From Candidatus Saccharibacteria bacterium UBA5145 (lineage in GTDB: Bacteria > Patescibacteriota > Saccharimonadia > Saccharimonadales > UBA4665), in contig DHXX01000012.1 in the NCBI GenBank assembly GCA_002413865.1, forward strand, positions 20,241 through 84,240: a DNA stretch of 64,000 bases. Direction: 5' to 3'. This document shows, piece by piece, positions 631-60,790 of this stretch. Numbering within the stretch: position 1 is the stretch's first letter; the number at the start of each line of letters is the position of its first letter. The notes beneath the pieces were generated by a model. That model was not told the DNA's origin. It made no database searches and saw only the letters and a program-made list of their open reading frames with translations. A program made the translations under genes and the position numbers.

Positions 631-707
631 GTCATCCCAGCGCAGGCTGGGACCCAATCAATAATGAATTCTATATCGATTGGATCCCAAATCAAGTTTG
701 GGATGAC
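631..707 (-). repeat. 77-bp GTCATCC-bounded two-hairpin element (type I, inverted copy)
   Basis: The reverse complement aligns almost base for base with 51820-51896, 60264-60341 and 28311-28388. It carries hairpins tcccaaa-cttgat-tttggga and cccagc-NNNN-gctggg. Confidence 0.85.
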
Positions 708-718
708 GGTAGGGGAAC

Positions 719-1381
719 CTAGGCTTGGGCGAAGACGATGGCTTCGACGCGCTTCGCGCCGGCCGCCTTCAGGGCTCGCGCCGCCGCTTGCAGTGTCGCA
801 CCAGTAGTGAGCACGTCGTCGACCAATAATATATGTGCCCCGGTTACGCCGCTGGACTTAACCCGGAAAGCGCCAGTTAATTGCGTTAGTCGCTGGTGGC
901 GCGAAGCACCGACCTGGTGCTGTTGGCCGACGCGGGTCAAACAGGGGAGATAGCGCCGCCCCAACCGGTCTGCTAGCTCCCGAGCCAGCAGCTGGGCCTG
1001 ATCATACCCCCGCTGGCGAACACGTTTGCTCGATGTCGGGACGGGAACAATCAGAATGTGAGCCTCGGCGGCATAGATTGTTGCCAGATATTCGGCAATC
1101 TGGCCGGCCGCCGCTTGGGCGCCCTGAAATTTTAAGCGCCAGACCAGTTCTTTGGCGATAGTTTCGTAATTAGTACCGACGGTCACTCGGTAGAGCGGAC
1201 TCGTCGCGCGGCACGAGCGACAAGTACGGCTCAATTTGGTGACGGCTCGACAACGATAACAACGGGCTGGCAGGCAGGTTAAGGCGCTGCTACAGGCGCG
1301 GCATAACAGAGGCCCTTCGTCGCCGCAGCCGACGCAGCGGTGGGGAGCAATAATAGCGATTAGGCGGTCGAATAAGCTCAT
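719..1381 (-). CDS. comFC: ComF family protein (ComFC-type phosphoribosyltransferase-fold competence protein)
   Basis: N-terminal 4-Cys zinc finger (CVGCG...CRAC...CYRC...CRSC) and C-terminal PRTase motif ILLVDDVLTTGATL. Start taken at MSLFDRL (ATG 1381) rather than the ORF-track start at 1435. Confidence 0.8.
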   Translation of the reverse strand: MSLFDRLIAIIAPHRCVGCGDEGPLLCRACSSALTCLPARCYRCRAVTKLSRTCRSCRATSPLYRVTVGTNYETIAKELVWRLKFQGAQAAAGQIAEYLATIYAAEAHILIVPVPTSSKRVRQRGYDQAQLLARELADRLGRRYLPCLTRVGQQHQVGASRHQRLTQLTGAFRVKSSGVTGAHILLVDDVLTTGATLQAAARALKAAGAKRVEAIVFAQA

Positions 1382-1510
1382 GTTGTGATTATTGTGTTGT
1401 AAATATGTAGTTTGTTCGTTGCACACCTTGAACAACCTAAGCTATACTGTCAGTAAGACAAAAATGCAAGACTCTTAAAGAAGAATTAATCAACCGGAGG
1501 GTAACAGCTT

Positions 1511-1987
1511 ATGGCGCGACGTAATCGCGACGACGATCTTTTGCTTGAAGAAGACGAATTAACAGCGGCTTTTTTGGGTGACGATGATCTCACAGTACCA
1601 ACCGAGACCAACCAACCACAGGCCTCACCAACAACTGATGAGTGGGACGAAGACGATACCGTACCCGGCCAATTGGCAGTCGACGTGTATGAGACTCGCG
1701 AAAAGCTAGTCGTTAAAGCTCGCACCGCGGGCGTTAACAAGCACGACCTCGACGTCAGTATCTCTGACAACCAGTTAACGATTCGCGGCACCCTGAGTGC
1801 CGGCTTGGAAGAAGGCGTCGAAAACTACTTCTTGCAAGAATGTTACTGGGGTGAATTCTCACGGACTATTGCATTGCCCGTACCTGTCAAAGAAGAAGAG
1901 ATTGAAGCCGTTCTAAAAGATGGCGTTCTGACAATCAGCTTCGGCAAAGTCAAGCAAGACACGATCAAGAAGATCCAAGTCTTATAG
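1511..1987 (+). CDS. hsp20: Hsp20/alpha-crystallin family small heat-shock protein
   Basis: Acidic N-terminus, then an alpha-crystallin domain: AVDVYETREKLVVKARTAGV...LTIRGT...GEFSRTIALP...DGVLTISFGK. Confidence 0.85.
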   Translation: MARRNRDDDLLLEEDELTAAFLGDDDLTVPTETNQPQASPTTDEWDEDDTVPGQLAVDVYETREKLVVKARTAGVNKHDLDVSISDNQLTIRGTLSAGLEEGVENYFLQECYWGEFSRTIALPVPVKEEEIEAVLKDGVLTISFGKVKQDTIKKIQVL

Positions 1988-2008
1988 CCGCTTTGGTTTA
2001 ATCGCCTT

Positions 2009-2044
2009 AAATAAGCCCTTACTCTTGTAGGGGCTTATTTTGTT
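2009..2044 (+). terminator. rho-independent terminator of hsp20
   Basis: Perfect 10-bp stem aaataagccc/gggcttattt (2009-2018/2031-2040) running into a T-rich tail. Confidence 0.6.
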
Positions 2045-2102
2045 ACCAAAGAACCCTTCCATTGCCACCCCGCACTCTTCCAACATCCAACCTTTCTTTC
2101 TT

Positions 2103-2214
2103 GTCATCCCAGCGAAAGCTGGGACCCAGTCAATAACTAACTCCTTACAGAGGTTTTTTGGGAGTAGCTACCGCTACAAAAAATATACTGGGTCCCAGCT
2201 TTCGCTGGGATGAC
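2103..2214. repeat. ~112-bp REPIN/MITE-like element (type II)
   Basis: 28-bp terminal inverted repeats gtcatcccagcgaaagctgggacccagt / actgggtcccagctttcgctgggatgac. Each arm is itself a 7-bp hairpin with a GAAA loop. The internal hairpin is gtagc-tacc-gctac. Paralogous copies lie at 56056-56167 (inverted) and 58934-59047. Confidence 0.9.
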
Positions 2215-2243
2215 AATATGGGGGGAAGGGTCTATCGCGAAAG

Positions 2244-2271
2244 CAAAAGAGCCCTTCGCAGGGAAGGGCTC
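2244..2271 (-). terminator. rho-independent terminator of the pilin operon
   Basis: Stem gagcccttc/gaagggctc (2249-2271), followed on the minus strand by TTTT. Lies 29 nt after the stop of the last pilin gene. Confidence 0.6.
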
Positions 2272-2299: not shown

Positions 2300-2734
2300 C
2301 TAGCTGATGCCGGTAGTTGATGTCGTAGCCGTGTTGATCACGAAGTGAACGATGATTTGGGCTAGAGCCACGATAATAAGGCCAATGATAGCGTATATTA
2401 AGGTGTTCTTGGCGCCAGACACATTGCCGCTGTCACCACCGGAGGTGATGTACTTGAATCCTCCGTAGATAATCATCAGGACGGCCACGATGCCGACGAT
2501 GATCGAGAATATATTGACTATTTTTGAAGCGATGCCACTGAGATCGGTCGTTCCGCTTGTTCCAGCTGTACCACAATTATCGCCAGCCGTTCCGGTGGCG
2601 TTGTTAACTCCCGTACAAAGGCTGCTCTTGATGGTTGCCGAGGCAACACCGCCCAGAACAGGCACTAACATCGGGACCCCCAGCGTCAAACTAGCGACGG
2701 CGACGAGGAAAAAGCTTTTCATTTTTTTAATCAT
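2300..2734 (-). CDS. T4SS pilin-like protein (VirB2/TrbC-type), paralog 1
   Basis: Signal peptide, Cys pair (C..14..C), then a TM-loop-TM hairpin IVGIVAVLMIIYGGFKYITSGGDSGNVSGAKNTLIYAIIGLIIVALAQIIVHFVIN that is shared by all six paralogs. Confidence 0.75.
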   Translation of the reverse strand: MIKKMKSFFLVAVASLTLGVPMLVPVLGGVASATIKSSLCTGVNNATGTAGDNCGTAGTSGTTDLSGIASKIVNIFSIIVGIVAVLMIIYGGFKYITSGGDSGNVSGAKNTLIYAIIGLIIVALAQIIVHFVINTATTSTTGIS

Positions 2735-2797
2735 ATTTACCTTTCTTATGTTTACTTAATTTATACTACAAAAACACTCTTCAAATCAAGCTGCCAT

Positions 2798-3286
2798 CTA
2801 CTTACATCGTCTATCGCTTGCAGAGATCGCAGGGTTAGAGGTGCAGGCGCCGGTGGCTGAATTAACTACAAAGAAGACAATTGCCTGAGCTAACGCTACC
2901 ACCACTAACCCGACGATAGCGTACACTAGCGTGGTTTTGGCACTAGCTATCTTGCTGGCGTCCCCACCAGAGGTGACATATTTAAACCCACTTACGAGAA
3001 CCATAACTACCGCCGCGACACCAACAATAAACGACAGTATGCGGAGTATTGCGGCGATTATATTCGTAATAGCCGTATTGCTAGCAGATCCACAGCCTTG
3101 CGTACTATCGACGCTGTTTAGGCCGTCACAAGCACTACTTTTTAGCGTCGGGGGTGCTGGGGCGGGTGTAGTGGCGGCAAAACTGGGGGAAATGTTTGGC
3201 ATAGCCGCTACCGGCATAGCAAACAGCAAGCCACTTAGGCCTAGGCTGATTGCTAAAAAGTTCAGTAACTTAGTCTTCATATTCAT
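2798..3286 (-). CDS. T4SS pilin-like protein, paralog 2
   Basis: Signal peptide, Pro/Ala linker, Cys pair, then hairpin FIVGVAAVVMVLVSGFKYVTSGGDASKIASAKTTLVYAIVGLVVVALAQAIVFFVVN. There is an extra C-terminal Cys pair. Confidence 0.75.
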   Translation of the reverse strand: MNMKTKLLNFLAISLGLSGLLFAMPVAAMPNISPSFAATTPAPAPPTLKSSACDGLNSVDSTQGCGSASNTAITNIIAAILRILSFIVGVAAVVMVLVSGFKYVTSGGDASKIASAKTTLVYAIVGLVVVALAQAIVFFVVNSATGACTSNPAISASDRRCK

Positions 3287-3294
3287 TCCTTAAA

Positions 3295-3684
3295 TTAGAT
3301 TTTATTAATTACAAACGCAATGATTGATTGGGCGATTATAACCACGACTATACCGATGACTACGTAGAGCACGCCATCGCGCGCAGACTTCACGCCGTTG
3401 GCGTCGCCATTTGAGGTAATCAAACGGAAGCCGCTAACAACCAGCACAACGGTAGCAGCAATCCCTGCTATGAGGGACAGCATGTTTAAGAGCTCTTTCA
3501 GAACAACGATAACGGGGTTTGTCTTTGCTTTAGTCTGGGCACCAACATCGCCACACACAACCGTAGATTTGGCACTACCACTACATGGCTGGAAAACGTC
3601 TACGGCACTGGCCGTACTGGTGACTACCAACACCGGGAAGAGAAGACTGGCTGCGATTGCTAATGCGTATATAAATTTCTTCAT
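3295..3684 (-). CDS. T4SS pilin-like protein, paralog 3
   Basis: Start taken at MKKFIYAL (ATG 3684). Signal peptide, Cys pair CSGSAKSTVVC, hairpin LIAGIAATVVLVVSGFRLITSNGDANGVKSARDGVLYVVIGIVVVIIAQ. Confidence 0.7.
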   Translation of the reverse strand: MKKFIYALAIAASLLFPVLVVTSTASAVDVFQPCSGSAKSTVVCGDVGAQTKAKTNPVIVVLKELLNMLSLIAGIAATVVLVVSGFRLITSNGDANGVKSARDGVLYVVIGIVVVIIAQSIIAFVINKI

Positions 3685-3688
3685 AATT

Positions 3689-4018
3689 CTATAACCGATT
3701 GAGCACAAATGACACAATTAATTCACCGCTAAGGGCAATCACTAGTCCAGCGGTGGCATAGATAATAGTATTGCGCGCTTTCGCCGCTTGTTGGGGGTTA
3801 CTGCCTTCCGTAATAAGACGCAGGCCTCCCCAGATAACAATAATAACTACGGCCACGACAGCAATTATCCCGAATACTATTTGCAAAATACTTTGTAGGT
3901 TGGCCTGACTGGCCGCAATTGTAGGTAGACCCGTATCACAGTTAGCTGCGTCTAGACACTCCACTTTGGCCGTAGCCGCCACTACGCCAATCATGGCTGG
4001 TGAAAGAAGCGTGATCAT
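3689..4018 (-). CDS. T4SS pilin-like protein, paralog 4 (short)
   Basis: Short hydrophobic leader, Cys pair CLDAANC, hairpin IVFGIIAVVAVVIIVIWGGLRLITEGSNPQQAAKARNTIIYATAGLVIAL. Confidence 0.65.
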   Translation of the reverse strand: MITLLSPAMIGVVAATAKVECLDAANCDTGLPTIAASQANLQSILQIVFGIIAVVAVVIIVIWGGLRLITEGSNPQQAAKARNTIIYATAGLVIALSGELIVSFVLNRL

Positions 4019-4022
4019 AGCT

Positions 4023-4445
4023 TTAATTTATCCTTCCCGCCACAAAAGCAATAATGGCAGCGGCCGAAATGGCGAGAGCCAACCCTATCAGGGCGTTGAC
4101 AATCGTGCGCCTTGCCTGAGCGGTCTTATCGGGCTCTCCTTGGCTCAACATGTATGACACCCCGCCATACATCACGAACGCGACCGCCATTAGGGCCGCT
4201 ACACGAATAAGTATTTCAATGATTGCTGCGACGACAAGCCAGGTGTCGGCCAGGCTTGCCAACAGCGGCGTACACATCGGAAGACCGTTTGGATTGGCCA
4301 CAGAAACCGCTACCGTTGGCTGGAGAGTCCCACTCAAGTACTGGTACCAGTGTGGGAAACTCAAGAAACTAGTCACCCCTTTCGGAAAAGTACAAGCATC
4401 ACCGATCTTAGCGGCGACTACCGCAGCAATTACTGGACTGATCAC
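4023..4445 (-). CDS. T4SS pilin-like protein, paralog 5
   Basis: GTG start overlapping the upstream stop (GTGA). Two Cys residues, then hairpin RVAALMAVAFVMYGGVSYMLSQGEPDKTAQARRTIVNALIGLALAISAAAIIAF. Confidence 0.65.
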   Translation of the reverse strand: MISPVIAAVVAAKIGDACTFPKGVTSFLSFPHWYQYLSGTLQPTVAVSVANPNGLPMCTPLLASLADTWLVVAAIIEILIRVAALMAVAFVMYGGVSYMLSQGEPDKTAQARRTIVNALIGLALAISAAAIIAFVAGRIN

Positions 4446-4870
4446 TGGAAGAATCCTGCCGGAATTAGATAGTTCAATATCGCGTAGGCAAATATGAATA
4501 TGAGCAGGGCCGTGATATTGCTCCTGATACGCCCCATCGCCTCGGCCGTCGCCTTTGGATCACCGCGCGACGCGGTGTACTGGATGCCAGCAAAAACCAT
4601 TGAGCCAGTCAGAACTAACCCCACGCCAATGGAAAGAAAACGAATAATCGCAAAGGCCACATCAGTAATTGGATTGCCCTTACCGGTACAGCCGATATTT
4701 ATCGACGTCACAACACTGTTTGGAGCTGCACCACAGACATCACCGGGGGCGGCGGCAGCGGCCGCAAAGCCGGTGACTAGCGGTGTTGCCGAAACATTTG
4801 GGGTTGCCAGAAAACAGAAGCCAAGCACGAACCCTAAAATTATTAAACCGTTTTTATATTTATGAAGCAT
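4442..4870 (-). CDS. T4SS pilin-like protein, paralog 6 (first gene of the operon)
   Basis: Signal peptide MLHKYKNGLIILGFVLGFCFLATPNVSA, Cys pair, hairpin FLSIGVGLVLTGSMVFAGIQYTASRGDPKATAEAMGRIRSNITALLIFIFAY. The alternative ATG at 4879 overlaps the predicted -10 box. Confidence 0.65.
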   Translation of the reverse strand: MLHKYKNGLIILGFVLGFCFLATPNVSATPLVTGFAAAAAAPGDVCGAAPNSVVTSINIGCTGKGNPITDVAFAIIRFLSIGVGLVLTGSMVFAGIQYTASRGDPKATAEAMGRIRSNITALLIFIFAYAILNYLIPAGFFQ

Positions 4871-4878
4871 TAACACCA

Positions 4879-4907
4879 TTTATATTGGATATCTCCGTTT
4901 TTTGCAA
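4879..4907 (-). promoter_or_regulatory. candidate sigma70-type promoter of the pilin operon
   Basis: On the minus strand: TTGCAA (4907-4902), 17-nt spacer, TATAAA (4884-4879). This would give a very short or absent leader for the ATG at 4870. Confidence 0.3.
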
Positions 4908-5196: not shown

Positions 5197-8100
5197 ATGA
5201 TATTGAAAATGAAAATCCAGAAAATGAAGAGTCGCAGCCTGTTGGTGTTACTGGCTTTGGTGCCCGTATTGTCTACTGTTATAGTCCTCGGCACACCCGT
5301 CCTAGGGTCGCACGCCGCTGCTGCTACGGCTCCACTTCCGGTTGATGCCCGTGTTTTCTCCCGCCAATCCTACCTTATGATGACTTCTCAATGCGGTTGG
5401 ACCCGAGGCGTAGGAGCGATCCGCGCCGTCGCGGAACCCGGAATACCGTTCACTCCAGCCAATGGGTGGATGGCGACTGATCACAACGGGGCGAACATGA
5501 ACAAGTCTGTTGGTAGCGCTTTCAGAAAGTTCATTCCTATGAATGATGATACTGCGAGAATGGATTGCGATAACGCCGAGGGTTGGGTAGACAAAACCCT
5601 CCAAGTTTGGAATTTTAAAGATCCAATAACTTTCTTATGGGCGGTCCGTGATGCCGGTGGGCTGAACTGGAATAAGGACATGGGTGCCTTCTCGACCAAA
5701 GACGGAAGTAACAGCAATGCGGAAAATGCCGCCATTACTAAAGTCGTCCAAAAAACACCTTTTTCGGGGGCAACGAAAGGCCTCGCTCCCGACGAACAGT
5801 ATTACGACTGGCTAGTCAATTTCGAAACACAGTGTTCGGCAACTTTTTCAAATTCACCGGCCGCCACCAGTACCGAGATAAATGGCATAATGAGCGCCCA
5901 AGCCCTTCTTAACGGCACCCCGACGCCCGGTTATTGGCACTTTGATAAAAGAGTTGGCATAGACGTGGATGTTGGCACCGCTTTGATTGCTAGTGACGGT
6001 GGTTCTAACTGCCCTGAGATAGCCAATCATGTTGGTAACCCTATCCTTATCAATGCTTACGCCGCCTACGTTAAGGCCGGTGGTACGGCACCGGCCGTGA
6101 CTGGCGGTGGAGCTGCGGCCACTTCACCCGACTGTGAGTCGCAGGGTGGTGCGTTGGGCTGGGTACTATGCCCAATAATAGATGGTCTAGCCAAGACTAT
6201 TGACGGCCTCTACAGCACCATGATTCAGCCGCTACTAGTGACTAGGCCAATCGACATTTTAGGCAGTAGCAGCGACCCAACGCATACCTATCAAATCTGG
6301 TCTAACTTTCGCATATATGGCAATATTTTCCTGGTAATCGCGCTGCTGGTGATAGTGTTTGGCCAATCAATTGGTGGTGGCATGATCGAGGCCTACACCG
6401 CCAAGAAGGTCTTGCCGCGCCTATTAGTCGCCGCCGTCATGGTCAACCTATCCATTTATCTTGTCGCTTTCGCCGTTGACCTGACGAACATTTTGGGGAA
6501 CGGCCTAGCCACGATTATTAGCGCCCCCTTTGCCCAAACACCGGGGTTCTTCAAACTCAGCATTAGCGGCACGACGGGTGGCATTGGGCTCACCGCCATA
6601 GTAGGTACTGCCTTTTGGGCCGCCATAAGTGCCGGCCCGCTGTGGACGTTCATCTGGACATTCTTCTTGATGCCGGTTTTGCTGACAGTTCTTGCCATTC
6701 TGGTAACGGTAGTCATCCGGCGCGGTTTGATCATCCTGCTCATAATCGCCAGTCCGGTGGCCTTTGCGTTGTACTGTCTCCCCAACACCGAAAAATATTT
6801 CAAAAAGTGGTGGGATTTATTGATAAAAACGCTGCTTGTCTACCCGATTATTGCCGTCATCTTTGCCATCGCCAACATACTTGCTGTCACCATCAATTCG
6901 ACCAGTCAGAGTGGCGGCATCACCGGAGTCGTTGGCCAGTTCGTGAGTGTCGCGGCGCTAGTGGTGCCACTTTTCCTGATTCCGTTCGCTTTCAAGCTTG
7001 CCGGCGGCGTCATCGGTCAGCTGCACGGTGCCCTAGGTGGGATCAGTAAACGCGGAGCGGAAGCCTACAAGGGCAACGCCAACGACCCCAACAGTCGCCG
7101 CAACAGGGCTCGCAATGGTTTGGAAGACCGAAATATACTGAGCCGGGAACGGGGCGTTAGTAGGGTTGGCGGTCTTCAAAAAGCTGGAGTGACGGACAAT
7201 CAATCAGCCCAAACAGCCAGATGGAAGCGTCGGCTGGGACGGACACTCAGCCCGGTTGGCCGAGTGCTCAACTCGGGCGACCTAGAGGCCAAACGCTCGG
7301 CGCTTACCAAGAAACAGGCCGAATTGCGGGAACAAAAAACAGGCTATGGTCCCGACGACAGTGTGCGTGCTTTCTATGCTAAAAAGGGCGACGACGGCCT
7401 CTGGCGCTCATCAACGAGTGGCAAGGTGTTCTCCGACCTCGACGTCCAAAAAGCCAATTCACTCTACGGTCGCGGGGCGGGTTTATCGGCCTCGCAGGCC
7501 GCCATTAACTACGAACTCGGCAAAGCCGGAAACGACTCAGAATACAATAAGTTTCTGGCGGAGACCCCAGCGATGCTGGAGAAGAAAGGCTACAATCATG
7601 ATGAAATCAATGGCATTATGAAGGGTGTTGGTTATGCCAACCAAGCCAAGCGGCTCGACCTCAAGCACTCTTCGTTTAGCAAGAATGAAGATACTGGATT
7701 ATGGAAGCGCAGGATCGACTACGCCACCATGTCCCAGGACGCCGCCGAGAATTTTGGTTCGTACCCGATATCCAACATGAAGGACTCGCCGCTCTTGGCG
7801 CTCAGTGAAGGCCACACCGCGGCCCAAGGCGCCATCGCTGACGCCGCGCTCATTACCGGCACCGACGATGCATCCAATAAAGCCAGGCAGGACGTCTTCG
7901 ACAAAGCCGGCTTTAAGGCAGCCGCTCTGTCGGACGGCACAAAGATGGGCGGTCAAGCTCTGGCGGAACGGACTATCGCAGACAACAAGACGACCGCCAA
8001 GATTCTGGACACCCGCATGCGCCAGGGCCAGGGCATCGGCAGCATCGGCGACGACGGCACCGTTATTCCCAGCGCTCCCGGTATCGGTAGTGGTGCCAAT

Positions 8101-8202
8101 ATCAGTAGCGGGTCCGGCCATGTCGATGCCGCGATCGCCGACTTTGTTAATCAAGTTAACGGCCCACTACACCCACGACCAGGAGGTCCAATTGCCCCAT
8201 AA
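5197..8202 (+). CDS. VirB6/TrbL-like polytopic T4SS membrane protein (1001 aa) with large extra domains
   Basis: Signal peptide, a ~350-aa Cys-containing extracytoplasmic domain, a block of ~7 TM helices (about aa 375-620), then a ~380-aa hydrophilic tail. It is the first gene of the operon that contains PrgI-like and VirB4. Confidence 0.5.
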   Translation: MILKMKIQKMKSRSLLVLLALVPVLSTVIVLGTPVLGSHAAAATAPLPVDARVFSRQSYLMMTSQCGWTRGVGAIRAVAEPGIPFTPANGWMATDHNGANMNKSVGSAFRKFIPMNDDTARMDCDNAEGWVDKTLQVWNFKDPITFLWAVRDAGGLNWNKDMGAFSTKDGSNSNAENAAITKVVQKTPFSGATKGLAPDEQYYDWLVNFETQCSATFSNSPAATSTEINGIMSAQALLNGTPTPGYWHFDKRVGIDVDVGTALIASDGGSNCPEIANHVGNPILINAYAAYVKAGGTAPAVTGGGAAATSPDCESQGGALGWVLCPIIDGLAKTIDGLYSTMIQPLLVTRPIDILGSSSDPTHTYQIWSNFRIYGNIFLVIALLVIVFGQSIGGGMIEAYTAKKVLPRLLVAAVMVNLSIYLVAFAVDLTNILGNGLATIISAPFAQTPGFFKLSISGTTGGIGLTAIVGTAFWAAISAGPLWTFIWTFFLMPVLLTVLAILVTVVIRRGLIILLIIASPVAFALYCLPNTEKYFKKWWDLLIKTLLVYPIIAVIFAIANILAVTINSTSQSGGITGVVGQFVSVAALVVPLFLIPFAFKLAGGVIGQLHGALGGISKRGAEAYKGNANDPNSRRNRARNGLEDRNILSRERGVSRVGGLQKAGVTDNQSAQTARWKRRLGRTLSPVGRVLNSGDLEAKRSALTKKQAELREQKTGYGPDDSVRAFYAKKGDDGLWRSSTSGKVFSDLDVQKANSLYGRGAGLSASQAAINYELGKAGNDSEYNKFLAETPAMLEKKGYNHDEINGIMKGVGYANQAKRLDLKHSSFSKNEDTGLWKRRIDYATMSQDAAENFGSYPISNMKDSPLLALSEGHTAAQGAIADAALITGTDDASNKARQDVFDKAGFKAAALSDGTKMGGQALAERTIADNKTTAKILDTRMRQGQGIGSIGDDGTVIPSAPGIGSGANISSGSGHVDAAIADFVNQVNGPLHPRPGGPIAP

Positions 8203-8249
8203 ACAGTACCTCTCCAGCACGGAGAACTCAGGGTATCTACAGGTGACAC

Positions 8250-9359
8250 ATGGCATCATATAAAGTTATCCAGAATATCGAGGCCGAAGACAAGATTCTT
8301 GGGCCGTTGACGCTGCGGCAATTCATTTTTGCTTTGATCACCGCTTTCTTTCTATATCTCTGTTTTGTGGTGGTTACTAAGGGCGCTCCTTTCATGTTAG
8401 CCATCTTTCTGCCGCCAGCCCTGTTTACGGGCTTTTTTGCGCTGCCGATCGGCAAGGACCAGCCGACCGAGGTGTGGGCTTTGGCCAAGCTGCGCTTCTT
8501 GTTCAAACCGCGCAAGCGCATTTGGGACCAGAGCGGCGTCAAAGAGCTCGTTACTATAACCGTGCCAAAAAGGGTTGAGATAAATCGGACCAATGGGCTC
8601 AGCCAAGTTGAGGTGCAGAGCCGTTTGAGCGCCCTCGCCAACACCATCGATAGCCGGGGCTGGGCCATTAAAAACGTCAATGTTAATTTGTACAGTCAAC
8701 CGAGCCAGCTAACCATGGGGGGTGAATCTGACCGCTTGATCGATCCGTCGACAATGCCGCAAGCGGTACCGGATTATGACGTCCAGGCGTCCGACGATAT
8801 CCTCGACGAGCGCAGCAACCCCATCGCCCAGCAATTCGACCAGATGATCAACGCCTCGAGTCGGGCCCACCATCAACAACTCGTCAACACTATGAACGGC
8901 GTCCGCGCCGAACCGACCGCCCAGGTGCCAGTCGCGCCCGAGAATTACTGGTTCCTAAACCAAGCGCCGACGCCGCCGTCCGACGGGCAAGCCGTCTTTG
9001 CCCAAGCCCAAGTCGTGCAGCCAGGTCTAGTCGACGACGGAGCCACGCCGCCTGCAACCGCCGCCGAAGAGGCTTTATTAGACAACATCAAGGCCCGTAA
9101 TACGACCCAGCAGGTCTACAGCGCCCACATGAAAACGTTGCAACCACTGGGGGCCCAGTCGGCCAACCCAACCCCCGTTAATCAAGCTCCGGCCGTCGCG
9201 CCGGTACTGCCGCCCAAACCGATGACACCCCCTCCCAATCCTGCTATACTGAACTTGGCAAGTAATAACGACTTAAATGTGGCGACTTTGGCGCGGGAAG
9301 CCTACAAAGTAAAGAATCCTCAGTCGCCGCAGGATGAAGTTGTCATTTCACTACGCTAG
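8250..9359 (+). CDS. PrgI-family (VirB3-like) T4SS membrane protein with a long low-complexity tail
   Basis: The N-terminus MASYKVIQNIEAEDKILGPLTLRQFIFALITAFFLYL is the PrgI signature (..EDKI.GPLT.RQ..) followed by two TM helices. The C-terminal ~230 aa are Pro/Ala/Gln-rich. Confidence 0.7.
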   Translation: MASYKVIQNIEAEDKILGPLTLRQFIFALITAFFLYLCFVVVTKGAPFMLAIFLPPALFTGFFALPIGKDQPTEVWALAKLRFLFKPRKRIWDQSGVKELVTITVPKRVEINRTNGLSQVEVQSRLSALANTIDSRGWAIKNVNVNLYSQPSQLTMGGESDRLIDPSTMPQAVPDYDVQASDDILDERSNPIAQQFDQMINASSRAHHQQLVNTMNGVRAEPTAQVPVAPENYWFLNQAPTPPSDGQAVFAQAQVVQPGLVDDGATPPATAAEEALLDNIKARNTTQQVYSAHMKTLQPLGAQSANPTPVNQAPAVAPVLPPKPMTPPPNPAILNLASNNDLNVATLAREAYKVKNPQSPQDEVVISLR

Positions 9360-9405
9360 TCTTAAAAACAGACTGCGTTCTAGTAATAGGGTGGGCTAAA
9401 AACAT

Positions 9406-10341: not shown

Positions 10342-10350
10342 TGTGCTCAC

Positions 10351-10451
10351 AGTTGAAAGTTATAAAGTTCATAAAGTCGAAAGTATTAGGGGTTCAGGCC
10401 AGGTTTATGCAGCAGCTAACTTTCAACTTTCAAACTTTCAAACTTTCAACT
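10351..10451. repeat. family IV palindromic repeat (AGTTGAAAGTTATAAAGTTCATAAAGT type) inside the operon
   Basis: Left arm agttgaaagttataaagttcataaagtcgaaagt and right arm aactttcaactttcaaactttcaaactttcaact form a long imperfect hairpin. The same family occurs at 22724-22802 and 23169-23195. Confidence 0.8.
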
Positions 10452-10474
10452 AGTGCAACCAAAGGGAGCGCCTA

Positions 10475-12397: not shown

Positions 12398-12429
12398 TAA
12401 GTTTTGTAATAATGTGGAAATAAACAGTT

Positions 12430-16411: not shown

Positions 16412-16413
16412 TT

Positions 16414-18991: not shown

Positions 18992-19130
18992 GTCATCCTA
19001 GGGCCTTTTTGTCATCCTGAGCCATAGGCGAAGGATCTGAGTCCTCATAGCGCAGATCCTTCACTCCGTTCAGGATGACGGAATACTTTGTCATCCCAAA
19101 CTTGATTTGGGATCCAATAGATAAGGATTC
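18992..19130. repeat. mosaic cluster of GTCATCC-tagged repeats
   Basis: A lone gtcatcc tag (18992), a complete type III palindrome at 19011-19079, the linker ggaatacttt, then the 5' half of a type I element (gtcatcccaaacttgatttgggatccaat) from 19090. Confidence 0.85.
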
Positions 19131-23238: not shown

Positions 23239-23314
23239 GTCATTCTGAGCGATAGCGAAGAATCTGAGCTAAGGGTTCTTCGGGGTGAGATCCTTCGCCT
23301 GCGCTCAGGATGAC
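23239..23314. repeat. type III GTCATTC...GGATGAC palindromic element (76 bp)
   Basis: gtcattctgagcgatagcgaagaatctgagc ... gagatccttcgcctgcgctcaggatgac. Paralogs at 19011-19079, 25771-25845, 54300-54372, 58235-58308, 60179-60253 and 60614-60687. Confidence 0.9.
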
Positions 23315-25751: not shown

Positions 25752-25905
25752 GTCATCCTGAACGCCCTTTGTCATCCTGAACGGAGTGAAGGATCTGAGC
25801 CCAACCAAATCAATGCTCAGATGCTTCGCTGATGCTCAGCATGACAAGCTAAAAGATGCTTCGCTGATGCTCAGCATGACGGGGTTCGCTGACGCTTAGC
25901 AGGAT
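25752..25905. repeat. mosaic cluster of GTCATCC-tagged repeats with extra half-units
   Basis: A lone tag at 25752, a type III element at 25771-25845 whose right arm is the variant gctcagatgcttcgctgatgctcagcatgac, then a second copy of that arm (about 25853-25880) and a degenerate third. Confidence 0.8.
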
Positions 25906-27808: not shown

Positions 27809-27868
27809 TCAGCCGCCAGTCACATACAACGGTTTTTGTTTCCAGTAACAACGCAGTCCTTATGCGGT

Positions 27869-27900
27869 GTCATCCCAGCGCAGGCTGGGACCCAGTCAAT
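27869..27900 (+). repeat. single GTCATCC hairpin unit overlapping the GIY-YIG stop codon
   Basis: gtgtcatcccagcgcaggctgggacccagtcaat. The TGA of the minus-strand gene (27896-27898) lies inside the unit. Confidence 0.8.
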
Positions 27901-28186
27901 CAAGTAATCCGCTAGAAAGATCTTTCCAGCCCGGATTATTTTCTTCTATCAATTGTAGCTTCCAAATTCGCCTCCAAGCCTTGATATTCTTCTCTCGTCT
28001 AATCGCTTCGTCGACAAGTTCATAAGTTTCGTAGTGCACTAACTCGGTAACATTGTACTTTGTGGTGAAACTGGAATATGATTTTGAACGATGTTCGTCG
28101 ACGCGACGCGCCAAATTATTGGTAATCCTAGTATAAAGCGTTCCGTTGCGCTGGCTAGCTAGGACGTAGACGAAATACTGTTTCAT
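27896..28186 (-). CDS. GIY-YIG nuclease family protein (stand-alone, UPF0213-like)
   Basis: YFVYVLASQRNGTLYTRITNNLARRVDEHR...EAIRREKNIKAWRR matches the GIY-YIG core (Y-V-Y...G-T-L-Y...R...E...N). 96 aa. Confidence 0.8.
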   Translation of the reverse strand: MKQYFVYVLASQRNGTLYTRITNNLARRVDEHRSKSYSSFTTKYNVTELVHYETYELVDEAIRREKNIKAWRRIWKLQLIEENNPGWKDLSSGLLD

Positions 28187-28246: not shown

Positions 28247-28409
28247 TTGACTGGGTCCCAGCTGGAGCCTGTGCTGAACTTGTTTCAGTGCTGGGATGAC
28301 ACCGTACTTTGTCATCCCAAACTTGATTGGGGATCCAGTCAGTATAAGGATTCTATTTTGACTGGGTCCCAGCGTTCGCTGGGATGACAAGAGGTAGTAC
28401 TGGGATGAC
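28247..28409. repeat. mosaic cluster of GTCATCC-tagged repeats
   Basis: A variant inverted unit (ttgactgggtcccagctggagc...ctgggatgac), the linker accgtacttt, a full type I element at 28311-28388, then an extra tgggatgac tag. Confidence 0.85.
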
Positions 28410-50179: not shown

Positions 50180-50365
50180 CTAGTTTAATTTTAGCAAATA
50201 TTTGCCATATCCGCTCTTATTCAGGGGTTCGGCTATGGTCTCGAGTTGGTCTTTGGTGATAAAGCCTTGGCGGAAAGCGGCTTCTTCGATACAACCGATC
50301 TTGATGCCGGTACGCTTTTCGATGACGCGGAGGGAAGATAGGCTAGCCGGAGTTTTAACAATCAA
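50180..50365 (-). pseudogene. 3' remnant of a second glucose-1-phosphate thymidylyltransferase gene (rfbA')
   Basis: The ORF tail [49 protein letters not shown] aligns with the C-terminus of the full rfbA at 51952-52809 ([49 protein letters not shown]). Homology stops near 50335. Confidence 0.8.
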
Positions 50366-50430: not shown

Positions 50431-50455
50431 GGATCCCAGCCTGCGCTGGGATGAC
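50431..50455 (-). repeat. single GTCATCC hairpin unit
   Basis: ggatcccagcctgcgctgggatgac is the reverse complement of gtcatcccagcgcaggctgggatcc. Confidence 0.8.
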
Positions 50456-51753: not shown

Positions 51754-51916
51754 GTCATCCCAAATCACTAACGCTGTCATTCCAAACTCTCAACCCCGTC
51801 ATCCCAAACTCTCAACCCCGTCATCCCAAACTTGATTTGGGATCCAATCGATATAGAACTCATTATTGACTGGGTCCCAGCTTTCGCTGGGATGACAACG
51901 AGGGTGCTGGGATGAC
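51754..51916. repeat. mosaic cluster: three 22-nt half-units, a full type I element, then an extra tag
   Basis: gtcatYccaaa... units start at 51754, 51776 and 51798 (22-nt period). The full 77-bp element is at 51820-51896, followed by gctgggatgac ending at 51916. Confidence 0.9.
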
Positions 51917-51951: not shown

Positions 51952-52809
51952 TTAGTTGAGGCGGAGGAGATATTTTCCGTAACCGCTCTTTTGGAGGGGT
52001 TCGGCTAGGGTTTTGAGCTCGGCGGTGGTGATGAAACCTTGGCGGTAGGCGGCTTCTTCGATACAGCCGATTTTGATGCCGGTGCGCTTTTCGATAACCC
52101 GGATGTATTCGCTGGCGTCGTTCATTGATCCAAAGGTGCCGGTATCGAGCCAGGCCGAACCGCGCTCCATGGTCTGGACTTTTAGCTTGCCGCGCTTGAG
52201 ATATTCTTCGTTGACGCTGGTGATTTCTAGTTCGCCGCGGTCGCTCGGCTGGATGTTCTTGGCGATCTCGACGACGTCGTTATCATAAAAGTAGAGGCCG
52301 ACGACGGCGAAGTTGGATTTGGGCTGGGCTGGCTTTTCTTCGATCGAGACGGCGTGGTTTTGGGCGTCGAACTCGACGACACCGTAGCGGGCCGGGTCGG
52401 AAACTTCGTAAGCAAAGACAGTGCCGCCATCGGGGTCGGAACAGCCTTTCAGACTAGCGCCGAAAGCCTCGCCGTAGAAGATGTTGTCACCGAGGATCAG
52501 GGCGACCTTATCGTCGCCGATAAAGTCTTCGCCGATTATAAAGGCCTGGGCCAGGCCGTCGGGCGAGGGCTGGGCGGCGTACTGCAGCTTGATGCCGAGC
52601 TCGCTGCCGTCACCGAGCAGGCGCTGGAACTGGGATTGGTCGTCGGGCGTGGTGATAATCAGGATGTCGCGGATACCGGCTTGCAGCAGCGTGCTGAGCG
52701 GGTAGTAGATCATCGGCTTGTCGTAGATCGGCATCAGCTGCTTGGAGATGCCTTTGGTAATGGGGTAGAGACGGCTGCCTGAACCGCCGGCTAAGATTAT
52801 GCCTTTCAC
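51952..52809 (-). CDS. rfbA: glucose-1-phosphate thymidylyltransferase
   Basis: [41 protein letters not shown] start at 52809 overlaps the rfbD stop (GTGA), with GGAG upstream. The ORF-track ATG at 52854 would add 15 non-conserved residues. Confidence 0.9.
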
Positions 52810-54231: not shown

Positions 54232-54299
54232 TAGTACGATTGTACCATTTACTGACGGCTACCCGGTGTCAATTATCGTCAGGGCAACCCCCTGTAGTT

Positions 54300-54435
54300 G
54301 TCATTCTGAGCAAAGCGAAGAATCTGAGCTGTTGTTGGTAGCGCAGATCCTTCGCCTGCGGCTCAGGATGACGGAGGTGGCGGCTCAGGATGACGGCGTA
54401 CTTTGTCGTCCCAAACTTGGTTTGGGTCCAATCGA
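54300..54435. repeat. mosaic cluster of GTCATCC-tagged repeats
   Basis: A type III element at 54300-54372, an extra ggctcaggatgac, the linker ggcgtacttt, then a degenerate 5' half of type I (gtcgtcccaaacttggtttgggtccaatcgataagg). Confidence 0.85.
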
Positions 54436-54463
54436 TAAGGTCTCTATTTGTAGTTCAGCCAGC

Positions 54464-54979
54464 TTAGCTCGGGAACAAACGCTGCAATGCTTGGATGCCG
54501 AGCTGGATATCTTGGTCGTGTAGTAGTGATAGGTCGAGCCCGCACAGCGGTAATGACTGGATGCCGGCGACGTCGTCGCGAGGGGTGAGTGCCGCAGTGG
54601 TGGTCAGCCGGGTCCAAAAGAAGACGGTGATGACGGGCAATACTTCGCCCTTGAACGGGTACTGGCCGGCGCCACTGGTTAAGTAGCGCAGAGGCTCATA
54701 ATCGGCTGGGGTGAGCGCTAATTCTTCGGTTAGTTCGCGGCTGGCGGCGGCCTCGAAGGTCTCATCACCGTCCAGGAATCCGCCAAACGAATCGAGCATG
54801 CCCTTATGCGGCTCGATGCCGCGGACGGCCAGCAGGACGCGGTTATCGGCGGTTACAAAGAAGACACCGACCGTCGGCGTGGCATTGGCATAAATCGGGT
54901 GTTGATTGGCGCACTGGAAGGCGTGCGGCCCGGTCGGCGTGAGGGGTGTGCCGCAGCGGCGGCAAGCGGTCATCTCCAT
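54464..54979 (-). CDS. NUDIX hydrolase with N-terminal zinc-ribbon
   Basis: CRRCG...FQCANQH, then the NUDIX box GGFLDGDETFEAAASRELTEELAL (G-x5-E-x7-REUxEE). Confidence 0.8.
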   Translation of the reverse strand: MEMTACRRCGTPLTPTGPHAFQCANQHPIYANATPTVGVFFVTADNRVLLAVRGIEPHKGMLDSFGGFLDGDETFEAAASRELTEELALTPADYEPLRYLTSGAGQYPFKGEVLPVITVFFWTRLTTTAALTPRDDVAGIQSLPLCGLDLSLLHDQDIQLGIQALQRLFPS

Positions 54980-56055: not shown

Positions 56056-56167
56056 GTCATCCCAGCGAAAGCTGGGACCCAGTATATATCTTGTAGCGTT
56101 AGCTACTCCAAAAGAGCTACATAAAGGAACTTGTTATTGACTGGGTCCCAGCTTTCGCTGGGATGAC
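56056..56167. repeat. type II REPIN/MITE-like element (inverted copy)
   Basis: Same 28-bp TIRs as 2103-2214. The interior gtagcgttagctac is the reverse complement of the internal hairpin of the other copies. Flanked by family IV fragments at 56027-56054 and 56208-56230. Confidence 0.9.
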
Positions 56168-56315
56168 AGCAGCAGGCGTGGAATGATGAGAGAGGGGTGG
56201 CTGCAGCCAACTTTATAACTTTCAACTTGCTAAACTCTTCCCCCGAACCGAGCTTCTGCCATGCCTTATGCCGGCCGCTCTGGTATGATGAACGGATGAT
56301 TAGAAGACTCCAAAA

Positions 56316-58166: not shown

Positions 58167-58234
58167 GGTATGTAGTTAGATAGTGAAATAGTGGATAGGA
58201 AATAGGAAATAGGAATAGCTTCAGCAGCAGCATT

Positions 58235-58308
58235 GTCATCCTGAACGGAGTGAAGGATCTACCCTAGACAAGTCCAAGCTCAGATCCTTCGCTTACGCTC
58301 AGAATGAC
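58235..58308. repeat. type III palindromic element (74 bp)
   Basis: gtcatcctgaacggagtgaaggatct ... gctcagatccttcgcttacgctcagaatgac. Confidence 0.9.
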
Positions 58309-58370
58309 GAAGAGCCAAAGTCCGAGATAACTTTCAACTTTATAAACTTAGATAGGGGCAGAGGATTTCA

Positions 58371-58886: not shown

Positions 58887-58933
58887 GCCGGTCAGACCGT
58901 TCGGTCAACCATTGTCACGTTCGGTTAACTATT

Positions 58934-59068
58934 GTCATCCCAGCGAAAGCTGGGACCCAGTCAATCAAACAATCCTTTTTATAAGCTTTTAGTAGAGTAG
59001 CTAGCGCTACAAAATATGTACTGGGTCCCAGCTTTCGCTGGGATGACATAGGAGGGGGCTGGGATGAC
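58934..59068. repeat. type II REPIN/MITE-like element plus an extra tag
   Basis: 58934-59047 has the same TIRs and internal gtagctagcgctac hairpin as 2103-2214. It is followed by gctgggatgac ending at 59068. Confidence 0.9.
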
Positions 59069-59074
59069 AGGGTG

Positions 59075-60103
59075 TTAGGGTTTGCCGCTGGCGTAGCCGT
59101 CGGGGTTCTGTGATTGCCAACGCCAGGCGTCGCGGCAGGCGTCTTGGATTGTTAGTTCGGCCTGCCAGCCGAGTTCGGCACGAGCGAGCGCCGGGTCGGC
59201 GTAACAACTGGCGATATCGCCGGGGCGGCGGGCGACTATTTCGTAGGCAATTTCCTTGCCGGAAGCCATCTTAAAGGCAGTTATCATTTCTAAGACCGAA
59301 GTACCTTGCCCGGTGCCGATATTGTAGGCTTTGTAGACATTGGGGTGATCGAGATGGGCCAGGGCGGCGACGTGGGCCCGGGCCAAGTCGACGACGTGGA
59401 TGTAATCGCGGACGCCGGTGCCGTCGGGGGTGGCGTAATCGTCGCCGTAAACCCGCAGCCGCTTAAGCTTGCCGACGGCCACTTGGCTAATATAGGGCAC
59501 GAGGTTATTCGGCGGACCGTTGGGGTCTTCGCCGATGGTACCGGAGGCGTGGGCGCCGATCGGGTTGAAATAGCGGAGCGACGTGATGTTCCAATTTTCA
59601 TGGGTCTGGCTGACATCCTCGAGGATTTGCTCGATCATCAACTTGGTCTGGCCGTAGGGGTTGGTGGCCGATTTGCGGGCTGACTCGGTTATGGGCAGCA
59701 CCTCGGGGTCGCCGTAAACGGTGGCCGACGAGCTGAAGACTAGTTTAGTGACGGCAAACTGCTGCATGACTTCCAGTAGGGTGAGCGTTGATTCCAGATT
59801 ATTTTGGTAGTAGTAGAGGGCTTTGAGGCTTGATTCGCCAACCGCTTTCAGGCCGGCAAAGTGAATCACGGCGTCAAAGCTATGAGCTTTGAAGACCGCC
59901 TGCAACTGGGCGCTGTCGCGCACATCGAATTCGTGGAACTCGATGGTTTGGCCGGTAATCAACTCGACACGTTTTAACGACTCGACGCTGCTGTTGGCTA
60001 AATTATCGACCACTACTACCTCGTGGCCGCTGCTAAGTAGTTCGACGATGGTGTGCGAGCCGATATAGCCGGCACCGCCGGTAACTAGGATGGTTTGTTT
60101 CAT
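59075..60103 (-). CDS. galE: UDP-glucose 4-epimerase
   Basis: [36 protein letters not shown]. 342 aa. Confidence 0.9.
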   Translation of the reverse strand: MKQTILVTGGAGYIGSHTIVELLSSGHEVVVVDNLANSSVESLKRVELITGQTIEFHEFDVRDSAQLQAVFKAHSFDAVIHFAGLKAVGESSLKALYYYQNNLESTLTLLEVMQQFAVTKLVFSSSATVYGDPEVLPITESARKSATNPYGQTKLMIEQILEDVSQTHENWNITSLRYFNPIGAHASGTIGEDPNGPPNNLVPYISQVAVGKLKRLRVYGDDYATPDGTGVRDYIHVVDLARAHVAALAHLDHPNVYKAYNIGTGQGTSVLEMITAFKMASGKEIAYEIVARRPGDIASCYADPALARAELGWQAELTIQDACRDAWRWQSQNPDGYASGKP

Positions 60104-60136
60104 ACGTCTATTCTACCTGAGTCTCAAACTACTACT

Positions 60137-60341
60137 GTCATCCCAACGTTGTCAGCCCAAACCACCTTTCCCGTAATTGTCATTCTGAGCAAAGCGAAGA
60201 ATCTGAGCCGTGACTAGATGAGCTCAGATCCTTCGCCGTCGGCTCAGGATGACAGTGCACCTTGTCATCCCAAACTTGATTTGGGATCCAATCGATATAA
60301 AGATTCTTTATTGACTGGGTCCCAGCTTTCGCTGGGATGAC
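60137..60341. repeat. mosaic cluster: degenerate tags, type III, type I
   Basis: gtcatcccaacgttgtcagcccaaacc, then type III at 60179-60253, the linker agtgcacctt, then type I at 60264-60341. Confidence 0.9.
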
Positions 60342-60364
60342 GGGGAGGACAAAGGGGGCGGACG

Positions 60365-60538
60365 TTATCGAGTTTTAGGAACCAGCTTGTCGGTAGCGGC
60401 TTGAACCGAGGCGGTTTTAAGTTCGATAGCTAGGCGATTTAGCTCAAGCTTAGTCGTGATTTGATCGAATCGGGCGTTCATATTCTTAAACTCAGCCTGC
60501 AGATAGTTGAACAGTTTGGTATATTCGTCTTGGCTCAT
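60365..60538 (-). CDS. small coiled-coil hypothetical protein (57 aa)
   Basis: Hand translation gives MSQDEYTKLFNYLQAEFKNMNARFDQITTKLELNRLAIELKTASVQAATDKLVPKTR. It is the only open frame between two repeat clusters. No clear RBS was checked. Confidence 0.35.
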   Translation of the reverse strand: MSQDEYTKLFNYLQAEFKNMNARFDQITTKLELNRLAIELKTASVQAATDKLVPKTR

Positions 60539-60613
60539 CGTAGATACATTGTACCACTGGTCAGTGGCCGACCAATGCTATTTTAACCTCAAGTTAAGGT
60601 TACCCCCACAGTT

Positions 60614-60790
60614 GTCATTCTGAGCGCGTGCGAAGAATCTGAGCCGTAGCTTTATGGGCTCAGATCCTTCACTCCGTTCAGGATGACAGGGGGGAGTGGG
60701 ATGACGACGGGGCGCTGGGATGACAATGCTGGGCGCTGGGATGACAATGCTGGGCGCTGGGATGACAATGCTGGGGGCTGGGAGGACTGG
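60614..60790. repeat. type III element followed by a 21-nt tandem array of half-units
   Basis: Type III at 60614-60687. Then gctgggatgacaatgctgggc repeats three times (60714-60776), with degenerate units on both sides. Confidence 0.9.

Follow-up and report, generated by a model that had tools for sequence, protein, structure and literature searches.

GTCAT-tagged hairpin repeats and a probable Ssn-type GIY-YIG nuclease gene in a Saccharibacteria contig

The DNA described here is a 64,000-nucleotide stretch (the window) of contig DHXX01000012.1 from Candidatus Saccharibacteria bacterium UBA5145. Its genes include dnaA, dnaN, rnpA, yidC, and type IV secretion-like genes, and its DnaN clusters at 90% identity with a protein recorded under a Candidatus Saccharibacteria metagenome-assembled genome (MAG). 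Other assemblies with this locus are ENA ERZ27248559 (contig k119_32814), GCA_002405365.1, GCA_002404125.1, and GCA_002427855.1. The window also holds 15 clusters of short, oriented hairpin repeats that begin with a GTCAT tag. Two of these clusters, 27869-27900 and 28247-28409, enclose ssn, a small open reading frame (ORF) that is predicted to encode a GIY-YIG nuclease. The repeats, their relation to this gene, and their place among known repeat-nuclease systems are the subject of this report.

Each repeat module consists of an unpaired (C/T)GTC tag, a stem of 8-9 bp that starts with AT, a short loop, and a tail that starts with C. The tags in the window are mostly TGTC, with some CGTC, and three stem classes (A, B, and C) share this one tag. 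Class A reads (T/C)GTC-ATCCCAGC-GAAA/GCAG-GCTGGGAC-CCAGTCAAT and has a 4-nt loop and an 8-bp stem whose first pair is an A.C mismatch. Class B reads TGTC-ATCCCAAA-CTTGA-TTTGGGAT-CCAATCGAT, with an 8-bp stem (CCCAAA/TTTGGG) and a 5-nt loop. Class C reads TGTC-ATYCTGARC-loop(3-5)-GYGAAGRAT-CTGAGC, with a 9-bp stem that carries an invariant tandem G.A/A.G in its middle and a loop of 3-5 nt. The tail is CCA in classes A and B and CTG in class C, where the first C alone is kept. The initial annotation of the window listed all 15 clusters and their hairpins, and a reading of the sequence confirms every one. Its stems are present, but the two given as atcct-N11-aggat and attct-N12-agaat are better described as the 9-bp ATYCTGARC/GYGAAGRAT stem with a G.A mismatch.

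Most modules form inverted dimers with their tags outward: three A-A' dimers (~112 bp), four B-A' dimers (77-78 bp), and seven C-C' dimers (~75 bp). The two arms of all seven C-C' dimers differ by one stem change, which is compensatory in six; the arm at 58308 has T.G. In a half module, the tag and the 5' half of the stem are followed by some 10 nt only; such units recur in direct tandem with 19-22 nt per unit. The tagged hairpins first called modules are real, but many of the elements so called are half modules only. At four sites, the 10 conserved nucleotides RNNGYACYTT link a C' or A' module to the class B tag that follows (19073-19096, 28294-28317, 54388-54411, and 60247-60270), so that composite blocks such as C-C' followed by B-A' recur as units.

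The tag is strongly enriched and almost entirely intergenic. With both strands counted, the window contains 47 matches to GTCATCC, compared with 5.75 +/- 2.43 in dinucleotide-preserving shuffles of the window (largest shuffle 14), and 55 matches to GTCATYC, compared with 12.7 expected from the shuffles. On a gene map taken from the gene calls of matching public contigs, 40 of the 47 GTCATCC tags lie wholly within the 12.6% of the window that is intergenic. Their density is 4.94 per kb between genes and 0.13 per kb within them (binomial p = 3e-29), a 38-fold difference. The seven genic tags are isolated, have no hairpin, and occur at the number expected by chance. The copy at 27869-27900 overlaps a stop codon, in line with the original remark that copies lie between coding sequences or overlap a stop codon only, and the gene concerned is the GIY-YIG nuclease gene. 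Together the clusters occupy 1,780 of the 8,095 intergenic bases (~22%). Fourteen of the 15 abut the 3' end of a gene and one sits between divergent gene starts; modules occur in both orientations and are concentrated near nucleotide-sugar and glycosyltransferase genes (50-62 kb). The family extends beyond the window, both upstream on the same contig (L092) and in the related genomes L086, L088, and L089. Public gene calls place two small ORFs over clusters (18993-19145 on the minus strand, 50 aa, and 54266-54523 on the plus strand, 85 aa); these are probably spurious repeat translations.

The ssn gene (27896-28186, minus strand), an ORF flanked by two inverted modules, was overlooked in the initial listing of the window. 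Its 96-aa product has a single Pfam domain, PF01541, and is the only match when a hidden Markov model from an alignment of 28 Ssn homologues (A1) is run against all six-frame ORFs of the window (E = 9e-47); no NCBIfam model matches the protein. Its AlphaFold2 model adopts the GIY-YIG fold with a pLDDT (predicted local distance difference test) of 92, and the best fold matches in the PDB are the UPF0213 proteins BH0048 and EF2693, followed by the Slx1 nuclease domain. Residues Y7, Y18, R28, H32, E65, and N84 are invariant in the Ssn family alignment and are present in the window protein. Read along the ssn strand, the unit consists of a class A module with a 27-nt loop, a 60-nt spacer, the ORF, and an inverted class A module over the stop codon. 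Table 1 lists this unit together with the other repeats.

Table 1. The ssn gene and the repeat modules of the window, in window coordinates.
Feature	Position	Strand	Basis
ssn gene, 96-aa single-domain GIY-YIG protein	27896..28186	-	Pfam PF01541, E = 7.9e-13
Class A module at ssn 3' end (TGTCATCCCAGCGCAGGCTGGGACCCAGTCAAT); ssn stop TGA lies inside the module tail, minus-strand reading	27868..27900	+	fits published SRM pattern
Class A module 60 nt upstream of ssn ATG; loop enlarged to 27 nt, contains CTGAAACAAGTTCAG	28247..28300	-	sequence reading
A-A' homodimer, 112 bp, class A tags outward	2103..2214	.	single-stranded DNA fold -42.5 kcal/mol, z = -12.3
A-A' homodimer, 112 bp	56056..56167	.	WsnRNA46 (RF02625) match on both strands, 43-46 bits
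A-A' homodimer, 114 bp	58934..59047	.	sequence reading, SRM pattern, Rfam comparison
A-B' heterodimer, 77 bp: A on + strand at 631, B on - strand ending at 707	631..707	.	sequence reading
B-A' heterodimer, 78 bp	28311..28388	.	repeat family D8
B-A' heterodimer, 77 bp	51820..51896	.	single-stranded DNA fold -15.6 kcal/mol, z = -4.3
B-A' heterodimer, 78 bp	60264..60341	.	96% identical copy at a different site in L088
Solitary class B module with part of dimer spacer	19090..19130	+	sequence reading
Degenerate class B module, tag now GTCGT	54405..54435	+	repeat family D2
Solitary class A module	50431..50455	-	sequence reading
C-C' heterodimer	19011..19079	.	class C stem reading
C-C' heterodimer between rnpA and yidC	23239..23314	.	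same site in L088 (~84% nucleotide identity)
C-C' heterodimer, then duplicated C' arm (25854-25880) and decayed copy (25881-25905)	25771..25905	.	repeat family D7
C-C' heterodimer	54300..54372	.	single-stranded DNA fold -19.7 kcal/mol, z = -5.5
C-C' heterodimer	58235..58308	.	class C stem reading
C-C' heterodimer	60179..60253	.	class C stem reading
C-C' heterodimer	60614..60687	.	class C stem reading
Half-module array, three 22-nt units (GTCATYCCAAAY + 10 nt), adjoining the 5' side of a full class B module	51754..51819	+	family D14
Half-module array, ~5 units of 18-21 nt (GTCATCCCAGCG + filler), 5' of class C module	60688..60790	-	family D3
Half-module array 5' of class A module, just past epimerase gene stop codon	59048..59068	-	strain comparison
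Single half module, 21 nt	28389..28409	-	sequence reading
Single half module, 20 nt	51897..51916	-	sequence reading
Single class C half module, 22 nt	54373..54394	-	sequence reading
Single class C half module, 19 nt	18992..19010	+	sequence reading
Single class C half module, 19 nt	25752..25770	+	sequence reading
Decayed half modules (GTCATCCCAACG.., GTCAGCCCAAAC..) 5' of class C module	60137..60178	+	sequence reading

The module upstream of ssn is unusual. At its position (28247-28300), L089 has a plain class A module with a GAAA loop. The CTGAAACAAGTTCAG segment of the 27-nt loop is the reverse complement of the stem-loop of the ssn-flanking modules in L007 (3870-4000), another Saccharibacteria MAG, and the minus-strand module at 28255-28300 looks as though a piece of a second module sits inside its loop. 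In L088, a copy of this unusual module, 91% identical, stands on its own at another site (reverse-complement coordinates 15212-15267). Several database Ssn homologues bear N- or C-terminal extensions, such as VIPAKAGTQ, DPRLCEDD, and LAQDD, that likely reflect read-through of flanking modules.

Two published studies describe repeats of this kind, while a literature search for the literal module sequences gave primer matches only. Di Nocera et al. (2013, BMC Genomics, PMC3733652) defined CGTC-tagged repetitive extragenic palindromes (REPs), which include Neisseria dRS3 and Rickettsia RPE-4 and RPE-6, in Proteobacteria, Chlorobi, Bacteroidetes, Spirochaetes, and Thermotogae. In these elements the terminal CGTC is often replaced by TGTC, the stem is 8-9 bp long and starts with AT, the loop has 4-5 nt, and the tail is CCA. 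They occur downstream of genes, mainly as inverted dimers with heterodimers common, and the authors argue that many REPs are transcribed. They report "no dedicated transposase" for the CGTC group, which flanked no REP-associated tyrosine transposase (RAYT) or other tyrosine transposase gene in their survey of many genomes.

The enzyme partner of such repeats was identified by Chenal et al. (Nat Commun 2025, PMC11893778), who name the Neisseria sequence NTS (CGTCATTCCCGCGMAVGCGGGAATCYRG) and its relatives Ssn-related motifs (SRM). Both occur on either side of the gene for SsnA, a GIY-YIG protein of 94 aa with a single domain (CDD cd10448). SsnA proteins from four species bind the motif as single-stranded DNA only, on one strand only, and cut a few nucleotides upstream of it while ignoring duplex DNA and RNA. 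Changing the stem sequence with the hairpin kept abolishes Ssn activity. In N. meningitidis, SsnA lowers transformation by motif-bearing DNA, and symbionts are over-represented among genomes that have more than 300 SRMs (PMC11893778).

The published SRM search pattern, HGTCWYN(0-2)YYVSBRHN(0-5)WNVSBRGN(0-2)RNCYNB (PMC11893778), has 10 matches in the window, all of them class A, compared with 0.33 +/- 0.58 in 100 dinucleotide shuffles. On these comparisons, the window repeats are very probably SRM accompanied by their cognate Ssn, with the predicted nuclease gene at 27896-28186 in an SRM-ssn-SRM layout. Elsewhere in the window the modules stand as gene-less dimers or singly, crowded into intergenic DNA. 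Like the SRM/NTS-SsnA systems, the window combines an oriented hairpin that has CGTCAT/TGTCAT as its 5' tag and a C directly behind the palindrome, class A fitting the SRM pattern, with a single-domain GIY-YIG partner of ~95 aa that has the motif, inverted, on both flanks. Nearly all copies are intergenic, abundant in a symbiont, and near surface-related genes, a placement that resembles the reported clustering of SRM/NTS around surface genes in Neisseria. The likeness to the CGTC REPs extends to the CGTC-to-TGTC tag, the stems of 8-9 bp that start with AT, the loops of 4 nt (A) and 5 nt (B), the CCA tail of classes A and B, the predominance of inverted dimers with many heterodimers, and the sites downstream of genes.

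Several features depart from the published descriptions. The host is a Saccharibacterium (Patescibacteria), a group that is not mentioned in the main text of PMC11893778 and is not among the five phyla of PMC3733652, which moreover found no dedicated enzyme. The window has three coexisting stem classes, of which B (CCCAAA/TTTGGG) and C (CTG tail) fall outside the SRM pattern; the first pair of class A is A.C, and class C has internal G.A pairs as well as its CTG tail, unlike the CGTC REPs. Tandem half-module arrays and strain variation in their copy number are not described in PMC11893778. The window protein has R at the YIG glycine and is known here from sequence and a model, whereas SsnA was characterized directly. 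Since the system itself was described in 2013 and 2025, what is new here is modest: the Saccharibacteria host, the large share of intergenic DNA, the tandem G.A of class C, and the hypervariable half-module arrays.

The association between modules and ssn recurs beyond the window. A homologue search with one genome per species and a narrower alignment (A2), the 28-protein alignment A1 being too diverse for locus search, gave at least 581 confirmed matches, from which 80 loci from many phyla were kept. A GTCAT hairpin in the matching orientation lies within 250 nt upstream of ssn in 53 of the 80 loci, downstream (in reverse) in 57, and on both sides in 44; the background elsewhere in the same loci is 0.195 modules per kb over both strands. 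Matches to the published SRM pattern border 38 of the 80 homologues, and matches to the strict Neisseria NTS consensus border five, which are 50-59% identical to the window Ssn. The stem sequence varies by lineage (for example TCCCGC/GCGGGA, TCCTGC/GCAGGA, TCCGGC/GCCGGA, and TCCCGA-CTTGA-TCGGGA), while the tag and the CCA tail stay constant. Among the 80 distinct ssn-flanking modules found by the hairpin criterion, the C, C, and A of the tail are conserved in 79, 71, and 78, respectively. GTC is invariant in these 80 and in 6 window modules, and the base before it is T in 55 of the 80, C in 21, A in 3, and G in 1.

The stems show compensatory change. A covariation set of 93 distinct 28-mers, picked by tag and tail alone and thereby free of circularity, has 94.2% of its cells paired, compared with 81.3% in column shuffles, and 85 two-sided pair changes, compared with 17.7 +/- 3.5. 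None of the 500 shuffles reaches the observed values, and slid registers drop to 18-50% paired. For class C, 31 of 33 sites picked by framework alone keep at least four of five free pairs, and the first free pair occurs in three Watson-Crick states. Classes B and C also have ssn partners elsewhere. Class B lies directly upstream of ssn in L013, another Saccharibacteria MAG; class C lies on both sides of ssn in L113 and L115, and a C-like module stands beside ssn in L085. With class A at the window ssn, all three classes are therefore associated with some ssn gene.

Four points weigh against this identification or its extension to the whole repeat set. First, codon 20 of ssn (28127-28129) replaces the near-invariant glycine of the YIG motif with arginine, giving LYTR where nearly all homologues have LY(I/T)G. 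The closest relatives (P0002-P0004) keep the glycine, and the distant homologue P0083 also has arginine; judged by this residue, the window Ssn may be impaired or altered in activity. Second, classes B and C lie outside the published SRM pattern, the sole ssn of the window is flanked by class A only, and stem sequence is reported to matter; classes B and C may therefore need another Ssn, perhaps encoded elsewhere in the genome, or be orphans. Third, an isolated class C arm is predicted to be unstable as single-stranded DNA (-1.9 kcal/mol, z = +0.7), under a folding energy model that treats tandem G.A pairs poorly. Fourth, the role in transformation discussed below is extrapolated from one distant species.

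If the window protein acts like its published relatives, its substrate would be single-stranded DNA in which the tag strand folds into a hairpin that Ssn binds by sequence and shape. The window Ssn would recognize at least the class A hairpin and nick 5' of the tag. Single-stranded DNA that carries modules, as in natural transformation, would then be cleaved by Ssn at the marked loci, and cleavage would shorten the available homology and limit recombination there, as in Neisseria meningitidis. Given the natural competence of Saccharibacteria (PMC10633639) and the ComF-like gene at 719-1381, restriction of incoming single strands at module loci would most likely be the host-level effect. More speculatively, the spread of modules and the growth and shrinkage of half-module arrays could be by-products of cutting and repair at replication forks.

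A different account addresses why the repeats exist and is compatible with the SRM-Ssn identification. It takes the ssn unit as an active selfish element, similar to an insertion sequence (IS) and using a GIY-YIG nuclease, with the gene-less dimers as derivatives of the kind known as miniature inverted-repeat transposable elements (MITEs) and dispersal as the cause of their abundance. The SRM-ssn-SRM layout does resemble an insertion sequence, as noted in PMC11893778, and the unit is present or absent at one intergenic site among relatives. At the GT2/GT4 intergenic site that holds the unit in the window, L089 (Ssn 85% identical) has a clean A-ssn-A' unit of 410 bp; L088 (~84% nucleotide identity) has no ssn unit at this site and only a decayed C-C' dimer; and L086, from the same sample as L088 and with an Ssn 79% identical, has the unit in a different gene context. 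Some sites that are empty in the window hold B-A' or C-C' dimers in L088, and some sites filled in the window are empty in L088. In one MAG, the two diverged units L026 and L056 are homologous from module to module only, internal sequence is conserved among dimers (families D8 and D12), and a fragment of one module type lies inside the loop of another.

The evidence on the other side makes active dispersal a possible explanation but a rather improbable one. GIY-YIG nucleases cut by hydrolysis, with no covalent intermediate, and alone are incapable of HUH-type strand transfer. An all-against-all comparison of ssn units finds no near-identical copies in different contexts and thus no direct sign of recent transposition. 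No target-site signature is definable from the filled and empty sites of the window and L088, whose flanks do not align. The C-C' dimer between rnpA and yidC is kept at the same site in the window and L088, two genomes ~84% identical, and assemblies that are 99.9-100% identical differ in array copy number and not in insertions. Two sets of comparisons were discarded as evidence of mobility or polymorphism: L001-L004 are 99.9-100% identical to the window with no module gained or lost, and the apparent indels in L092 are masked runs of N.

Half-module arrays are the only part of the system that differs among assemblies at least 99.9% identical. The array after the epimerase stop codon (59048-59068) has one unit in the window and L123 and three units in L119, L120, L121, L122, and L124, each allele being present in at least two independent assemblies. 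For the array at 60688-60790, the interval between fixed anchors is 99 nt in L119, shorter than the 120 nt of the window, L120, L121, and L123. Similar arrays lie beside modules in L020, L073, L086, L099, L110, and L114, with periods of 13-32 nt by lineage. In the window and at the inspected loci of other phyla, every array adjoins a full module on its tag side, which is the side where Ssn is reported to cut. Plain slippage and a footprint of cutting and repair both stand as readings of these arrays. A bolder proposal takes the arrays as traces left by continuing Ssn cutting and repair. The SRM-ssn-SRM unit and the dimers would then form an active mobile system in which a hydrolytic GIY-YIG nuclease acts on single-stranded DNA, a way of propagating repeats unlike HUH "peel and paste," and classes B and C would mark further, so far uncatalogued nuclease specificities. 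It is put forward here as a doubtful conjecture.

The modules might instead act mainly as RNA, with hairpins at gene 3' ends serving in termination, mRNA stability, or small RNAs. The abutment of 14 of 15 clusters on gene 3' ends fits such a role, as does the argument of Di Nocera et al. that many REPs are transcribed (PMC3733652). The A-A' dimers resemble WsnRNA46 (Rfam RF02625), a small RNA of Wolbachia; its model likewise pairs two GTCATCC...CTGGGAT.CCAG modules in inverted orientation, and the dimers align with it end to end on both strands, with unrelated internal sequence. The scores of these alignments are 42-46 bits (best 45.9 and 43.2), under the gathering threshold of 65.3, and at gathering thresholds Rfam finds only two tRNA-Ser genes in the window. 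Intrinsic terminators are rejected, as T runs do not follow the hairpins and terminator-like sites are not enriched (16 compared with 11.4 +/- 4.1). Modules occur in both orientations, and one cluster lies between divergent gene starts. Nor would a role in RNA account for the conservation of the unpaired tag and tail or for the tight association with a nuclease that ignores RNA. Such a role is unlikely to be the main function.

The initial annotation read the repeats as REPs and REPINs, REP doublets mobilized by a RAYT (a Y1 HUH transposase) encoded elsewhere in the genome. Its description of oriented, tagged intergenic palindromes, often in inverted pairs, is sound and matches REPIN architecture; the partner it proposed is not supported, and the GIY-YIG protein Ssn takes its place. 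None of the three outcomes that it named as refuting its reading applies, for the tag is 38 times denser outside genes, the stems covary, and the elements extend past the window. The systems described by Nunvar (2010) and by Bertels and Rainey (2011) share with the window repeats the short tagged palindromes, inverted doublets, intergenic position, high copy number, a single-copy partner gene flanked by repeats, and recognition of a single-stranded DNA hairpin. They differ in their GTAG tag, which is (C/T)GTCAT here, and in their Y1 HUH transposase, which forms a covalent intermediate, in contrast to a hydrolytic GIY-YIG nuclease. The same annotation noted that the window has no RAYT gene, and no Y1 transposase is found among the Pfam hits listed for genes called across the window on the matching contigs. 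CGTC-tagged repeats never flanked tyrosine transposase genes in the many-genome survey (PMC3733652), and in 44 of the 80 loci the repeats flank GIY-YIG genes on both sides. Mobilization by a RAYT is highly improbable on this evidence, in which the search for a transposase gene covers the window. Slightly less probable still is an origin as MITEs of a DDE transposon such as the IS1595-family element of the window, whose transposase gene (44775-45740) has no module within ~4.7 kb and only an isolated, hairpin-free GTCATCC nearest to it (46219), while module ends are conserved across phyla alongside ssn and not any DDE gene; a link to this transposase is rejected.

The SRM-Ssn identification places a recently characterized system of hairpin repeats and a single-stranded DNA nuclease in a Saccharibacterium, an epibiont with a reduced genome. 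Competence is the current route for Saccharibacteria genetics, and if the repeats direct cleavage of incoming single-stranded DNA, the efficiency of engineered allelic exchange could be affected. Such cleavage could also shape genome evolution at surface-glycan loci. The presence of classes B and C beside ssn elsewhere suggests that the published search motif undercounts the family and points to further nuclease specificities, possibly useful as single-stranded DNA tools. Through the hypervariable half-module arrays, the way in which the repeats multiply could be studied by experiment.

Other features of the window lie beside the repeats. A low-GC island spans ~29500-50400, with a GC content of 0.38-0.49 compared with ~0.53-0.57 around it, and contains ABC transporter, glycosyltransferase, GtrA, and DUF2142 genes along with the IS1595-family transposase gene. 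No module lies inside this glycan island, which is bracketed by the clusters at 28247-28409 and 50431-50455. A 139-nt direct repeat with 82% identity (50193-50331 and 51965-52103) flanks a Fic/DOC gene (50500-51648) and its two module clusters; its second copy overlaps the 3' end of the RmlA gene, and it may be a duplication from the insertion of the Fic gene.

A region resembling a type IV secretion system (T4SS) lies beside dnaN and dnaA, at 2300-4879 on the minus strand and 5197-17781 on the plus strand. It holds six tandem genes for small T4SS-pilin-like proteins and a block of TrbL, PrgI, TraC-like, VirB4-like ATPase, and lytic transglycosylase genes. The spacer between dnaN and the ATPase gene contains modules in the window and a gene for a 23S rRNA intervening-sequence protein in L088.

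Two more families of short intergenic repeats, unrelated to the GTCAT tag, are present in the window. One is purine-rich, of the GGAAATAGGAA type, and the other, of the AAAGTTATAAAGTTCATAAAGTTGAAAGT type, lies near gene starts. Sites of the two families are 24862-24950, 58193-58215, 62726-62748, and 20657-20693, as well as 10339-10437, 22722-22763, 23167-23208, 56215-56236, and 58327-58348. The AAAGTTATAAAGTTCATAAAGTTGAAAGT-type repeats may be promoter or operator elements.

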